Shown in pieces: positions 2,671 to 54,646 of a stretch of 64,000 nucleotides of DNA. The translations under genes were made by a program, and so were the position numbers. Under the pieces are notes generated by a model that was not told the DNA's origin, made no database searches, and worked only from the letters and a program-made list of their open reading frames with translations. Source of the DNA: Eledone cirrhosa (lineage: Eukaryota); NCBI GenBank assembly GCA_964016885.1, contig OZ024753.1:38688001-38752000 (forward strand), given 5' to 3'. Each line of letters begins with the position of its first letter. Position 1 is the first letter of the stretch.

Positions 2671-2877
2671 ATAAAGAAAGTGTGGTAAGATACCAGGTGG
2701 ACCATAACGCACCAGAGTACTCGATACTGAGGGTAGTAGAGTGGGTAATAGGAAAAGAGTCAGGACCCCCAACAGCTGAGCTCTGGCCATATTGACAGCT
2801 AGATCCGAATGTATCTGAATGAATCTAGCTGTCGAAACGGCTGGAGCTCAGCCGTCGGGGTCCTGACTCTTTTCCTA
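2671..2877. mobile_element. family A palindromic element, diverged subfamily
   Basis: Long arm gtggtaagataccaggtggacc...; short inverted arm gtcgaaacggctggagctcagccgtcggggtcc...ttccta followed by (TA)n. Confidence 0.8.
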
Positions 2878-2972
2878 TATATATATATATATATATATAT
2901 ATATATATATATATATATATATATATATATATATAATATATAAGATCAAAAGATGGTTAAAAGAGTTCCATG

Positions 2973-3043
2973 TATTTTATTATGCGCATTTCAAAAACAA
3001 ATATCATCATGCGATGACATTTGCGTTTTCGTCAGATAAAATA
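2973..3043 (-). ncRNA. type I hammerhead ribozyme (family P)
   Basis: Reverse complement of the motif at 4857-4927. Confidence 0.85.
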
Positions 3044-4247
3044 GGGAGACATGATATATTAAGGTTAAAAGACACTTGTGAATAGTGCAGTTTTAAATCA
3101 ACATATGAAAAGTAGTTTTAGATTGATGTGTGATATTGGGGAAAAAATTGAAGGGGGGGGGGTTGGAAAGGATGAAAAAGAGGAGGAGATGAGAGTAAAG
3201 AATGGAGGGGGAGGAGTATAATAAGGAAGGATGAGATAGGAGGAGAGATGGGTGATAGAGAGAGAGAGATAGCTTTTATAACTGAGAAAAATATATATTG
3301 TTTTACAGAGAGAGGTTAAAAAACCGCTGGAAGATAATATATAAATTAAAAGAATTTGAAAATTAACGAAGAGAAAAATTTTAAGAATAATGTTAAATTA
3401 AGGTTTGTATATTGAAGGGTTTAATAATATGTGCGATGAAAAGAAATTGTTAATATGTATTAAGAATAATATTAAGTTAAGGTTTGAATATTGAAGGGTT
3501 TAATAATATGTGCGATAGAAAGAAATTGTTGATATGTATTATTAAAAAAAATATAAAAATAGTAATGTAATTAAGGATATATTGTGAAAAGAAGTAGAAG
3601 AGTGGATGAATTAATATATGTAAATAGTTTGTTTACAAATGAGCGCAGAAAGCAAAGAAGGAGATAGTGTTTAAGGAGAAGACCTTAACATCAAAATATG
3701 TATGTTTATGAAGTATTTCCTAATGGTAATAATATAATGTAATAAAGGAGATTAGTTAGGGTTTAAGTTTGATTTTATGTGTTGTGATGTGTAATATGTA
3801 GAAGTTAGATGAGCATGAAAGGGAGAAAAAAATAATGTATTGAGGATGAATAATCTAACGTAAAAAAAATTGTTTATGTTTACGAAGGATTGTTCAAGGT
3901 GATACTATAAAGTATTTAAAAGGGTAATAGTTAGTTTTATGGCCAGTGAGAGGATGGAAGAAGGAAGAGTGGATATATTGTGGTGAGTAATAATAAGAAT
4001 TGCGAAGTATCTAGGAAGAAAAGGTACAGATTAGAGGTTAGAAATTAAAAGAAAAAAGGAAAAAAAAGGAAGAAAGAGAAGTGATAAATAGGAGTGATAT
4101 AGAATGAGTAACTAGTATTATATAATGTATAATAAATAACATTGAAATAAGGTAGAAAGATGAGTATATTTTTAAAGAAATATATATGTATATATATATA
4201 TATGTGCCTTTGAGAAAAAGGATTTTAAATTGGTAAAGTATTAGATA

Positions 4248-4411
4248 TTAGCTGTATACTTTATGGAATGTTCTGTGGAATTTATGCAAGCAGAGAGAAA
4301 ACAAGTCAGTGCGTCTATTTATTATAGAATCTAAATTAGATATAATGGTAAATTTCTCACATAAACAGAGATTACATATCTTGGATAGAGAGGCATTCAA
4401 GTATGGAGACA
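4248..4411 (-). pseudogene. C-terminal fragment of a Penelope-like RT/GIY-YIG ORF
   Basis: LSPYLNASLSKICNLCLCEKFTIISNLDSIINRRTDLFSLCLHK resembles the CxLCxxEK...(L/I)NxRxxLxSxCxH tail recalled for Naiad/Neptune-type PLE endonucleases. Confidence 0.7.
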
Positions 4412-4856
4412 ATTTCTTTCCATCGCACATATTATTAAACCCTTCAATATTCAAACCTTAACTTAATATTATTCTTAATACATATTAACAATTTCTTTTC
4501 ATCGCACATATTATTAAACCCTTCAATATACAAACATTAATTTAACATTATTCTTAAATTTTTCTCTTCGTTAATTTTCAAATTCTTTTAATTTATATAT
4601 TATCTTCCAACGGTTTTTTAACCTCTCTGTAAAACAATATATTTTTCTCAGTTATAAAAGCTATCTCTCTCTCTCTCTCTATCACCCATCTCTCCTCCTA
4701 TCTCATCCTTCCTTATTATACTCCTCCCCCTCTCATCTCCTCCTCTTTTTCATCCTTTCCAAACCCCCCCTCAATTTTTTTCCCAATATCACACATCAAT
4801 CTAAAACTACTTTTCATATGTTGATTTAAAACTGCACTATTCACATCATGTCTCCC

Positions 4857-4927
4857 TATTTTATCTGACGAAAACGCAAATGTCATCGCATGATGATATT
4901 TGTTTTTGAAATGCGCATAATAAAATA
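4857..4927 (+). ncRNA. type I hammerhead ribozyme (family P)
   Basis: TATTTTAT-CTGACGA-AAACGCAAATGTCATC gcat GATGATATTTGTTTTT-GAAAT GCGC ATA-ATAAAATA; 8-bp stem I, long stem II, palindromic minimal stem III, AUA site after 4919. Confidence 0.9.
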
Positions 4928-5569
4928 CATGGAACTCTTTTAACCATCTTTTGATCTTATATATTATTTATACTCCAGTCCTACAAACTGTAGAGTGCTA
5001 CTTATCCGATATCTGCATTGCTTTATTGTACTACAATAAAACTCACCTCCTACATTATATATATATATATATATATATATATATATATATATATATATAT
5101 ATAGAGAGAGAGAGAGAGAGAGAGAGAGCCATCCAGTGCTCATTATGAAAACAAAGATATAAAACTTAGTATACTATACAGAACAACAAAGCATGATATG
5201 AGGTCACTTTAATTTAGTTCTTTTAACATGGTTTCTGTTGTTGTTGTTGTTATTTATTGTGTTGTTCTTTTTACTTGCTGCAGTTGTTGTTGTTGCTGTT
5301 GCTGTTTTATTAGTGTAGTGTTAGTGTAAGTGTTAGTGGTGATTGTTGCTGTTGCTGCCATTGTTGTTGTTGCTGTTGCTGTTTTATTAGTGTAGTGTTA
5401 GTGTTAGTTGTTGTTGTTGTTGTTGTTGTTGTTGTGTGTGTTAGCGGTGATTGAAGGAGCTGTGTTAACCACAATTGATGTCAGAACCAGACCAATGGAG
5501 GGCATTAGTCCGGCAGTAATTGTCAGCCAAACAAATGATAGTTTGATAGTTTAGAGATAGGAAACGCTG

Positions 5570-52482: not shown

Positions 52483-53199
52483 AAATCCGCAGCTGTTTAA
52501 AATGCTTAAAAAAAAAAAGAACAAAAAAAAAAACCCAGTTGTGATCACCTATGAGGGCGTGGGGGAGGGGGGGGGTTCTTTGACAAAACATTTTTAGATT
52601 GGTGACATTTGGTGGAATTACTGCATTGTTGTTAGAAGAAACAAACACTGCGGGGGTTTTATATAAAGTTGGGTGGCTTAGTGGTTAACGTTATCCAGCT
52701 CACAGGTCAAGATCGTAAGGACGAGAGATCGATTTCTGATTCGACAGGCGCGTTGTTTTCTATTTGAGTGATATACTGTACGTGGGTCGCCCGAAAAGTT
52801 CATAGAAAGATTATGAAGGTGTGTCACCAGGTCGTACATGCACGCAAACAGGCACACGTTCACACGTTCACACACACACACATGCACGTACACACGCACA
52901 TGTTCACACACGCACACGTTCACACACATACACGTTCACACACTCACACGTTCACACACATACAAGTTGAAACACAAAGACATATTTGTTTGTACTGCAT
53001 CTCTGTTTTTGTTCCCATTTTCACTATATATATATATATATATATATATTTACTTACTGTGGTTACCTCCGATTCAACCCGGAATAACGTATATATATAT
53101 ATATATATATATATATATATATATATATATATATATATATATATATATATATATATGTATGTATGTATATATATATATATATATATATATATATATATA

Positions 53200-53605
53200 T
53201 TAATAATAATAATAAATTTCAAGACTAAAATCCAAAGAGGGCTCGATAAGGATAAATATATATCAAATATATAAGAACCGTAGAGCAAATATTTATTAAA
53301 ATAACAGATTAAAGTTTAAGCAAAGATTCGCTGCTTTCACCCTTAACGGGATCTTCTGAAACTAACAAAGTCAATCTGTAAACGCAGAAGTGGATATTTC
53401 AAAAAACGTTGCGACCGGAGGAAGACAGGAGACGATACTTTGGTTCGTGGAAACGTTCGCTGGCAAAGATTACAGATTGACTTTGTTACTTTACAGATTG
53501 TTAGTTTACAGATTGCGTTTACAGATTGACTTTATTAGTTTCAGAAGATCCCGTTAAGGGTGAAAGCAGCGATACTTTGCTTAAACTTTAATCTGTTATT
53601 TTAAT
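53200..53605. mobile_element. family E palindrome with CAGAAGA motifs (53313-53363 -, 53537-53587 +)
   Basis: AGTTT-CAGAAGA-TCCC gttaa GGGT-GAAAGCA..TGCTT-AAACT. Confidence 0.85.
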
Positions 53606-53660
53606 ATATATATATATATATATATATATATATATATATATATATATATATATATATATA

Positions 53661-53925
53661 TAGAAGTGGTTACACAACAGTTAGTTCACCATACCGAGAA
53701 CAACTGTTTCACCTTCGCGGATCTTCAGCTCGGGATGTATATGGTTATAGGAACAGGAAGGACAACCGTACGAACGCGCATGCGGAGAAACTCGGTCACT
53801 TCACACAGGCAATAGTATGTTCTCGGTATGGTGAACTAACTGTTGTGTAACCACTTCTATCTAACTCGTCCCTTGGACTGAGTGCTCTACCACTACGGAT
53901 ATTACCTTCCAGTGTTCCACCACTA
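53661..53925. mobile_element. family H palindrome with minimal hammerhead (53694-53733 -)
   Basis: CCGAG-CTGAAGA-TCC gcgaa GGT-GAAAC AGTT GTT-CTCGG; tail related to 50672-50742. Confidence 0.85.
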
Positions 53926-54061
53926 TATATATATATATATATATATATATATATATATATATATATATATATATATATATATATATATGTATGTATGTAT
54001 ATATATATATATATATATATATATATATATATATATATATATATATATATATATATATCTA

Positions 54062-54288
54062 TCTATCTAAGGCGGGTAAAATTCCCGAGATCCATGGACG
54101 AGTTCTCTCCAGCGGTCTCTGTCCCTCATTATCGCTGCCATATCCTGCATCTCCAAGTGACACAGAGGAGACTGAGGTTGGCTGGACATGCTCACCGACA
54201 TCCAGAGTTGACATTGCACTCAGTGCTCCTTTGGGAGCCCCTACATGGACACACTAGAAGAGGAAGACCAAGGTTAACATATGTTGAT
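54062..54288. mobile_element. RTE LINE 3' end with 5' inversion in (TA)n
   Basis: 54066-54156 is the 3' end on the minus strand; 54157-54288 is the upstream segment on plus ([18 protein letters not shown]...[11 protein letters not shown]). Confidence 0.85.
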
Positions 54289-54314
54289 ATATATATATAT
54301 ATATATATATATAT

Positions 54315-54646
54315 AGGAACGAGTAGGACCCCGACGGCTGAGCTCAAGCCGTTTCGACGGCTAATTCTGGACTAAAAAAAAAAAAAAAAAAATGTGTGGT
54401 GTAGTGTCTACTGTAGGAGGTGTGGTGTAGTGTTTACTGTAGAAGGTGTGGTGTAGTGTCTACTGTAGGAGGTGTGGTGTAGTGTCTACTATAGGTGGTG
54501 TAGTGTAGTGTCTACTGTAGGTGTAGTGTAGTGTCTATTGTAGGAGGTGTGGTGTACTCGTTCCTATTACCCACTCTACTACCCTAAGTATTGAGTACTT
54601 TGGTGCGTTATGGTCCACCTGGTTCCTTACCACATTTCCTTCGTTA
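54315..54646. mobile_element. family A palindrome with poly(A) and a 26-bp minisatellite at its centre
   Basis: Short arm, A-run, about 6 copies of gtgtggtgtagtgtctactgtaggag, long arm. Confidence 0.85.

Follow-up and report, generated by a model that had tools for sequence, protein, structure and literature searches.

Between the (TA)n runs that make up 11% of a 64,000-nucleotide (nt) stretch of the Eledone cirrhosa genome (assembly GCA_964016885.1, contig OZ024753.1, positions 38,688,001 to 38,752,000; hereafter the window) lie many short inverted elements. One set of these, family A, represents, to judge from its sequence, the 5′-truncated 3′ end of an autonomous Penelope-like element (PLE) of the Hydra clade. 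Its insertions have two fixed ends 80 nt apart. One arm of an insertion reaches the outer of these ends (the long arm) and the inverted arm stops at the inner one (the short arm). Both ends are read through in other copies, both match the target by TAT, and the two arms of an insertion share a common ancestry and are truncated independently at their 5′ ends. We propose, with a probability of roughly 0.65, that these insertions arise when one RNA, uncleaved or circular, is reverse transcribed from two target-primed starts, at fixed internal UAU sites 80 nt apart, on both sides of a cut (TA)n.

Two fixed ends in the window, the genome and raw reads

The initial annotation of the window held that the family A short arm always stops after ...TTCC, at ten places, and that the long arm continues for about 80 nt. 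All ten ends were found within 1 nt, each after ...TTCC, with (TA)n boundaries (starts or ends) at 2876, 9133, 13228, 30744, 30966, 38022, 38197, 45289, 51365 and 54315. The long arm extends exactly 80 nt past the short end, to ...CCTTCGT. The short ends given for family B (8641 and 21159) and for family P (near GATCTTATA) are likewise where they were placed. The word ‘always’ is too strong: there is one true long–long pair of family A (L272), and long arms occur alone (2165–2303 and 62087–62122). The ten ends correspond to eight independent events, two of the ten being tandem duplicates of their neighbours. The duplicates 30745–30934 and 30967–31156 show 5 differences in 190 nt; 37913–38021 and 38088–38196 show none. 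At both places (30745–31156 and 37913–38196) the entire insertion is duplicated through the (TA)n beside it, and slippage or unequal crossing-over after the insertion event is the probable cause. Not every copy is a palindrome. The arms at 37913 and at 38088 have no sequence in common, and the copy at 54316 has about 177 nt of central filler; here poly(A) and a G/T-rich simple repeat (54377–54554) are trapped between two family A arms.

How general are these ends? An unselected sample of 664 kb, made up of the window and 60 stretches of 10 kb, contains 87 family A segments. Sixty-nine have a resolvable end, and 65 of these ends fall within 2 nt of the two fixed sites; the other 18 segments, mostly diverged short arms, gave no resolvable end. 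The tail has seven other TA sites (+3, +12, +15, +24, +31, +44 and +63), and no family A end in this sample lies at any of them. Exact junctions across the genome number 19,578 for the short end and 22,032 for the long end.

Loose (AT)n ends at these positions are also present in raw reads that another study obtained from three other samples, with 2,596–2,921 and 7,400–10,151 reads per run at the two ends. The libraries are amplified, short-read and apparently cut at AATT, in the usual palindrome centre. They also contain head-to-head joints of non-overlapping arms, from few start places. At the locus-specific junction 37959/37960 there is no clear bridging among the reads listed, and a DNA search of the genome with a family A arm returned no match, the search skipping very common words.

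Could the palindromes be fold-backs of assembly or amplification, or a DNA transposon that is non-autonomous and whose terminal repeats are uneven? (TA)n palindromes are prone to artefact, and the window holds a perfect 470-nt palindrome of another family. Against this stand both ends in thousands of raw reads from each of the three other samples, the non-overlapping joints in the same reads, and arms that differ by substitutions and continue into an open reading frame (ORF) for reverse transcriptase (RT) and endonuclease. Ends 80 nt apart and arms from 10 nt to more than 3.5 kb that run on into the RT ORF are likewise at odds with a miniature inverted-repeat transposable element (MITE) or another DNA transposon. 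At the level of the family both forms of this explanation are refuted, and we leave them a negligible share of the probability. The earlier view of insertions into (TA)n, rather than assembly fold-backs, is borne out by the reads and by the substitutions between arms. So is the PLE architecture that it recognized, an inverted pseudo-long terminal repeat (pLTR) plus tail, which is present in L172, L173, L174, L180 and 11 more two-armed insertions.

Long ends pair with short ends

On the first 26.9 Mb of contig C1 we paired adjacent, outward-facing junction matches lying within 8 kb of each other, starting from 91 short and 100 long matches and dropping nine listed short matches that lie past the last listed long match. 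All 54 outward-facing family A pairs consist of one long and one short end, 27 each way round (binomial 5.6 × 10⁻¹⁷). For the remaining 37 short and 46 long matches the partner is diverged or there is none. Two-armed insertions with kilobase arms, 15 among 24 loci examined, are without exception long + short. The pattern extends to ten families of Hydra and Neptune type, where 149 of the 154 pairs whose arms belong to one family combine a long with a short end, in a set of loci enriched for family A and with the long and short labels of the other families assigned by us.

The window palindrome of 470 nt (56636–57105; 0 mismatches, no spacer) belongs to a Neptune-type family and is an exception to this rule, with the long end on both sides. 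It is possibly a fold-back or an assembly product. At L002, L004, L007, L177 and L240 a family A arm is joined to an arm of another PLE family, at L002 through a common CAGAAT. Such mixed joints may reflect a template switch, two RNAs or a later deletion. We considered, and dropped, the idea that the long site primes first: by eye, solo arms occur at 8 of 30 long-anchored and 0 of 30 short-anchored loci, but four solo short-ended arms were seen among ORF-anchored loci.

A common template, and arms that are not nested

Do the two arms of an insertion come from the same source? The small elements were compared over 33 nt; 53 of 82 have all three subfamily sites in both arms. The three sites agree in 47 of these 53 pairs, against a mean of 15.4 and a maximum of 27 in 5,000 shufflings, and of the six disagreeing pairs five differ at a single site. 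Among 15 long insertions, the strictly closest copy of an arm is its partner in 11; in this set 53 substitutions are private to both partners and 76 are found in one arm only. The two arms share a common ancestry, or one template.

The same observations could be met by two primings on two RNAs from the same active locus, an asymmetric protein complex giving each RNA one start site. If few loci are transcribed at once, this explains the coupling and the common variants equally well. It allows for the rare mixed-subfamily pair (L060) and mixed-family pairs (L002, L004, L007, L177), and no enzyme has to displace the other's complementary DNA (cDNA). Strict long + short pairing, however, needs a separate reason here, and there are several subfamilies of similar age, yet 47 of the 53 pairs agree and the arms of the long insertions have 53 private substitutions in common. 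We regard two RNAs as an unlikely source.

The arms are not nested. Among 88 small pairs, whose centre alignments are blurred, the short arm extends more than 5 nt further 5′ in 32 and the long arm in 13; the 5′ ends lie within 5 nt of each other in 43, and several junctions fall at short palindromes. In 13 of the 88 the arms have no common sequence, although 7 of these are duplicates or compound. Most small arms end 50–70 nt 5′ of the short site, within stem II of a hammerhead-like fold. The short-ended arm is longer by 1.3–2.2 kb in 4 of the 15 long insertions (L174, L175, L186 and L187), and at L174 it comprises the full unit and then continues through the upstream long site.

These figures bear on a published model in which a single priming is followed by self-priming, the first arm folding back and being copied (PMC3846280, with an antisense template). 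Arms derived from one template, the 43 pairs with nearly coincident 5′ ends and the palindromic junctions all suit it. But a copied arm must be nested in the arm from which it was copied. Since the short-ended arm often reaches further 5′ or has no sequence in common with its partner, and by kilobases in the four long insertions, self-priming does not explain the arms; nor does it account for a tail present on the long arm and absent from the short one. For the non-nested pairs it is already contradicted, unless all of them are later deletions, and we consider it very unlikely.

Both ends are internal and match the target

The initial annotation had proposed two priming events, one at the tail of the RNA and one at an internal UA microhomology. 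Two starts are the likely reading here as well, but neither end is at the 3′ tail of the RNA. The long end is read through into leader and ORF in 349 exact genome matches. Since tandem copies continue through it in this way, the long end is not the RNA 3′ end; the start sites lie 174 nt (short) and 94 nt (long) 5′ of the ATG. Nor is the match a UA at one site. At both sites the read-through continues with TAT, 3 nt matching the target.

A TAT match of 3–7 nt was found at all 13 ends for which a read-through copy could be scored, and the short ends of family X show TAT as well. With a local chance of TAT of 0.09–0.28 per end, the product for the eight ends of A, N1, N2 and N3, the families testable at both ends, is about 4 × 10⁻⁷. 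For six families (B, P, Q, R, T and X) the long end is outside the scored set. L324 was considered as a read-through of the family B long end and was dropped, having no exact genome match. TAT also occurs at +24 and +44 of the family A tail and is never used as an end there; TAT alone therefore does not choose the site.

Might the ends instead be made at the level of DNA, the endonuclease trimming a longer cDNA at two TAT sites in the element (‘EN-mediated resolution’, PMC8557442)? Both ends do resemble the target in carrying TAT, and the Penelope endonuclease requires the tail for recognition (cited in PMC11167929). The unused TATs at +24 and +44 speak against trimming, as does the truncation of both arms at their 5′ ends, which is expected for cDNA begun at those ends. 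Moreover, in PAc, the Poseidon element of the green anole (Frangieh et al. 2024, PMC11167929), the two boundaries of the tail are themselves the points at which synthesis begins. We hold trimming to be quite unlikely.

Tails measure 80 nt in A, 137 in B, 97 in P, 91 in Q, 88 in R and 79 in T, and 129, 38 and 39 nt in the Neptune-type families. In family A a cut in the hammerhead-like fold is predicted 17 nt 5′ of the short site. Both arms extend 3′ of this cut, and so the template would not be a linear monomer cut at the predicted ribozyme site. The core, YUGAGAAG, has U3/A8 in 38 and C3/A8 in 16 of the 54 copies listed; a U3–A8 hammerhead core can be active. At L173:4689-4800 the motif departs from C3/G8, with U3/A8 or C3/A8 instead; its stem II loop is long and its loop III is the palindrome GAGCTC. 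Family B carries CTGAAGA...GAAACGATCGTTA. An Rfam scan of the family A hammerhead-like region gave no hammerhead match, and the start region, folded as a single sequence, showed nothing out of the ordinary (z −0.18). Eleven canonical core matches upstream of A proved to be junction products or chimeras rather than a real core; these loci over-represent mixed-family arms and were kept out of the rates.

Identity of the element

Longer-armed copies of family A run through about 1.3 kb of 3′ untranslated region (UTR) into the ORF. At L173 a full unit of 3,572 nt stands with an upstream partial copy and an inverted arm, and its ORF encodes 719 amino acids from the ATG. Family A also forms head-to-tail arrays with a period of 3,531–3,543 nt; at G000:C1:91476610-91487256 and C1:437200354-437210966 at least four full-length units follow one another.

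We assigned the element to the Hydra clade by its motifs, following the criteria of PMC8557442. A Pfam scan of the family A protein gave no match, neither RT nor GIY-YIG. Its identity to an RT + GIY-YIG protein of the same genome that Pfam does recognize is 22% over 437 columns, and its predicted structure (predicted local distance difference test score, pLDDT, 93) has TERT as best fold match (E 1.7 × 10⁻⁸). RWR stands at residue 36, DKT at 116 and the CxCX5C linker, CNCPDRSIC, at 571. These motifs (RWK, DKT, CxCX5C) are kept in 110–117 of 117 aligned rows, except for the third position of RWK, which is K in 86. The GIY-YIG region, with VIY at 590 and YIG at 605, aligns with that of L096, and its Y, Y and G are kept in 116 of 117 aligned proteins. 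CxxC and CxH accompany the endonuclease (CNLC at 669, CKH at 697). The endonuclease lacks CCHH, and no cysteine pair lies between VIY and YIG. In A, B and P alike the endonuclease is C-terminal, not N-terminal as in Naiad and Chlamys. The unit, at 3,572 nt, is longer than the Hydra-typical <3 kb, about 1.3 kb of it being 3′ UTR, and the hammerhead core is non-canonical; by the wording of PMC8557442 both traits are typical, not defining.

Families B and P are Hydra-type as well; their ORFs are 37–54% (B) and 40% (P) identical to that of A in translated pieces. The short-ended arm of family P in the window carries the C-terminal 35 residues of a Hydra-type ORF (4302–4406, minus strand). Other families of the window are ends of Neptune-type elements, with DKG and Pfam matches to RT and GIY-YIG.

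Three further loci deserve mention. At L173:4770-4973 the reading frame is open for 68 codons 5′ of the ATG, spanning both start sites and the tail. At L144/L145 (G000:C1:27009645-27009921) 257-nt mini-units of family A, made of the hammerhead 3′ half, tail, leader and first codons, stand in tandem; a non-autonomous circle-like derivative is possible. L311:448-915 encodes a 156-residue GIY-YIG fragment with a CxC motif upstream and resembles a Naiad-type endonuclease.

A model with two starts

How, then, might one long and one short end be produced together? The GIY-YIG domain would cut both strands of the self-complementary (TA)n, leaving two identical 3′ ends, ...ATA; in such a repeat a target-site duplication is not readable. 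A protein on the RNA, probably a dimer (as suggested by PAc only), would set its two active sites on the two UAUs, one downstream and one upstream. Each start would pair 3 nt with its primer, the choice of site falling to the protein or to RNA structure and not to the match alone. Both cDNAs would extend 5′-ward, usually stopping in the hammerhead-like fold, 50–70 nt upstream of the short site, and sometimes running for kilobases, past one unit length. The two cDNA 3′ ends would then meet head to head in a joint that is usually blunt and otherwise has an overlap or filler of a few nt. Since both starts lie 3′ of the predicted ribozyme cut, an uncleaved multimer or a circle would serve as template. 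We infer the cutting, priming, dimer and joining from the behaviour of PAc in vitro.

Several observations weigh against this model. The common variants do not tell one RNA apart from a pair of transcripts of a single locus, nor from conversion between the arms at a later time, and at L060 the arms come from two clear subfamilies. One-sided deletions at palindrome centres could mimic some of the asymmetry. Four same-family pairs are long–long and one is short–short; of the family A long–long pairs L111 is a compound of two insertions, and L272 looks real. Eight pairs join different families. One-armed insertions account for 8 of 30 long-anchored loci (by eye), and four short-ended arms without a partner were met among 20 ORF-anchored loci. 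One additional anchor has no TAT match, the long-end match in two Neptune-type families comes from one read-through copy each, and a read-through of the family B long end, sought in the genome, was not found. In PAc, finally, the start sites do not differ between the strands and need no homology, and a coupled long + short rule is not predicted (PMC11167929).

The model of two starts on one RNA can be widened into a rule for endonuclease-bearing (EN+) PLEs. An asymmetric dimer on one RNA would make two simultaneous starts at fixed UAU anchors, one on each strand of a double-strand cut, the tail (38–137 nt) would be the spacer between its active sites, and inverted pLTRs would be two cDNAs joined head to head. 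We incline towards this general form by a little over even odds. If true, it would replace the self-priming and trimming models by a bidirectional target-primed reverse transcription unlike that of long interspersed elements (LINEs).

The formation of the PLE inverted repeat and one-sided tail was left open in PMC8557442 and partly answered in vitro in PMC11167929. Here the genome offers some 20,000 young insertions of one family and several unrelated families, and these place three constraints on any model: that each insertion gets a long and a short end, that both its arms come from one template, and that neither arm need be nested in the other. Coupled, non-nested arms discriminate between the published models. 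With an intact ORF of 719 amino acids, a defined target and two defined start sites, the mechanism is directly testable. It may also account for a large part of the genome's short palindromes, which would otherwise be mis-annotated as MITEs or assembly errors.

Features of the window

The insertions of families A, B and P in the window are collected in table 1. Family A insertions are often found in a (TA)n run that terminates another PLE insertion (L198, L202, L205, L216, L217, L273, L275 and L282); nesting of this kind would build dense clusters like that of the window. At 45520–46500 there is a tandem duplication of about 490 nt with a weak likeness to the GIY-YIG-bearing locus L071.

Table 1. 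Insertions and arms of families A, B and P in the window (positions in nt from its first letter).
Position	Strand	Family	Description
2165..2303	-	A	Solo long arm of an older subfamily, 5′ end joined to (TA)n
2671..2875		A	Head-to-head insertion; long arm (minus), short arm (plus) up to 2875
2943..5054		P	Short-ended inverted arm of ~1.47 kb; long-ended arm 4409-5054
8098..8640		B	Head-to-head insertion; left = long end, right = short end
8940..9132		A	Long + short; A/T filler at centre (~9048-9074)
13062..13227		A	Long + short; short arm extends further 5′ than long
20618..21158		B	Head-to-head insertion; left = long end, right = short end
30745..30934		A	Short + long; first of tandem duplicate
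30967..31156		A	Short + long; second of tandem duplicate
36802..37185		P	Head-to-head insertion; left = long end, right = short end
37913..38021		A	Inverted 47-nt tail stub + 62-nt short arm, no common sequence
38088..38196		A	Identical tandem duplicate of 37913-38021
45074..45288		A	Long + short
51366..51523		A	Short + long; joint = TCGA palindrome
54316..54644		A	Short arm 54316-54376 (minus), filler, long arm 54555-54644 (plus)
62087..62122	+	A	Long-end stub next to unrelated sequence
62404..62612		B	Third insertion; left = long end, right = short end; arms mostly non-overlapping

Comparison with known systems

Family A resembles the Hydra clade as described in PMC8557442 in its C-terminal GIY-YIG domain, RW(K/R), DKT, CxCX5C linker, CxxC and CxH, in its (TA)n target and single ORF, and in a hammerhead-like fold in the 3′ repeat. 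It differs in a unit of 3.57 kb against <3 kb, in the presence of full pLTRs and tandem arrays, and in a hammerhead core with A in place of G8. The tails of A, B, P and three unplaced families (79–137 nt) contrast with 30–40 nt in that clade. The supplement of the same paper lists an octopus Hydra element and Naiads inserted in (TA)n; the former, Hydra-1_Obim, has 2,507 bp and no pLTR. Compared by eye, its protein is like that of family A and its hammerhead sequence is different, which makes family A a separate family.

An inverted 5′-truncated copy at the 5′ end, often a one-sided tail, and a bias towards microsatellites are on record for Penelope, Neptune, Naiad and rotifer PLEs (PMC3846280, PMC8557442). 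The second of these papers, by Craig et al. (2021), describes the inverted copy and the often one-ended tail and leaves the mechanism of their formation open. In these accounts the inverted pLTRs are treated qualitatively and ascribed to self-priming or endonuclease resolution; here they are counted, and found to be same-template and not nested. PLE hammerheads, with possible circular templates, are described in PMC4209133, and retrozymes as PLE derivatives in bioRxiv 10.64898/2026.07.22.740005.

The closest biochemical counterpart is PAc, in which two internal RT starts delimit the tail (PMC11167929). PAc cuts and extends both target strands, uses uncleaved RNA and is a predicted dimer, and for family A we likewise propose two internal starts, extension on both strands and an uncleaved template. 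Its starts, however, lie inside the ORF and have no homology to the target, whereas those of family A precede the ATG and match by TAT. The text of PMC11167929, its supplement aside, carries no report of one start per strand in a coupled manner, nor of inverted arms; the word ‘inverted’ occurs there once, for a blocking group. Our literature search met no count of long/short coupling, no common-template test and no TAT match; older Penelope papers (Arkhipova 2006, Evgen'ev and Arkhipova 2005, Pyatkov 2004) and the PAc supplement, outside its scope, may state parts of these. The inverted repeat, the one-sided tail and two internal starts are thus already published. What is new, within the literature searched, is that the arms are coupled, share a template without being nested, and show the TAT match at each of the two internal starts; the elements themselves are new members of a known clade.

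A parallel is found outside the PLEs. In L1 twin priming, two target-strand primers on one RNA give a head-to-head inversion; the first priming is at the poly(A) end, the second falls at an internal site further upstream that varies between insertions, and the arms do not overlap. In the insertions described here, by contrast, both starts are internal and fixed, and the arms usually duplicate the same sequence.

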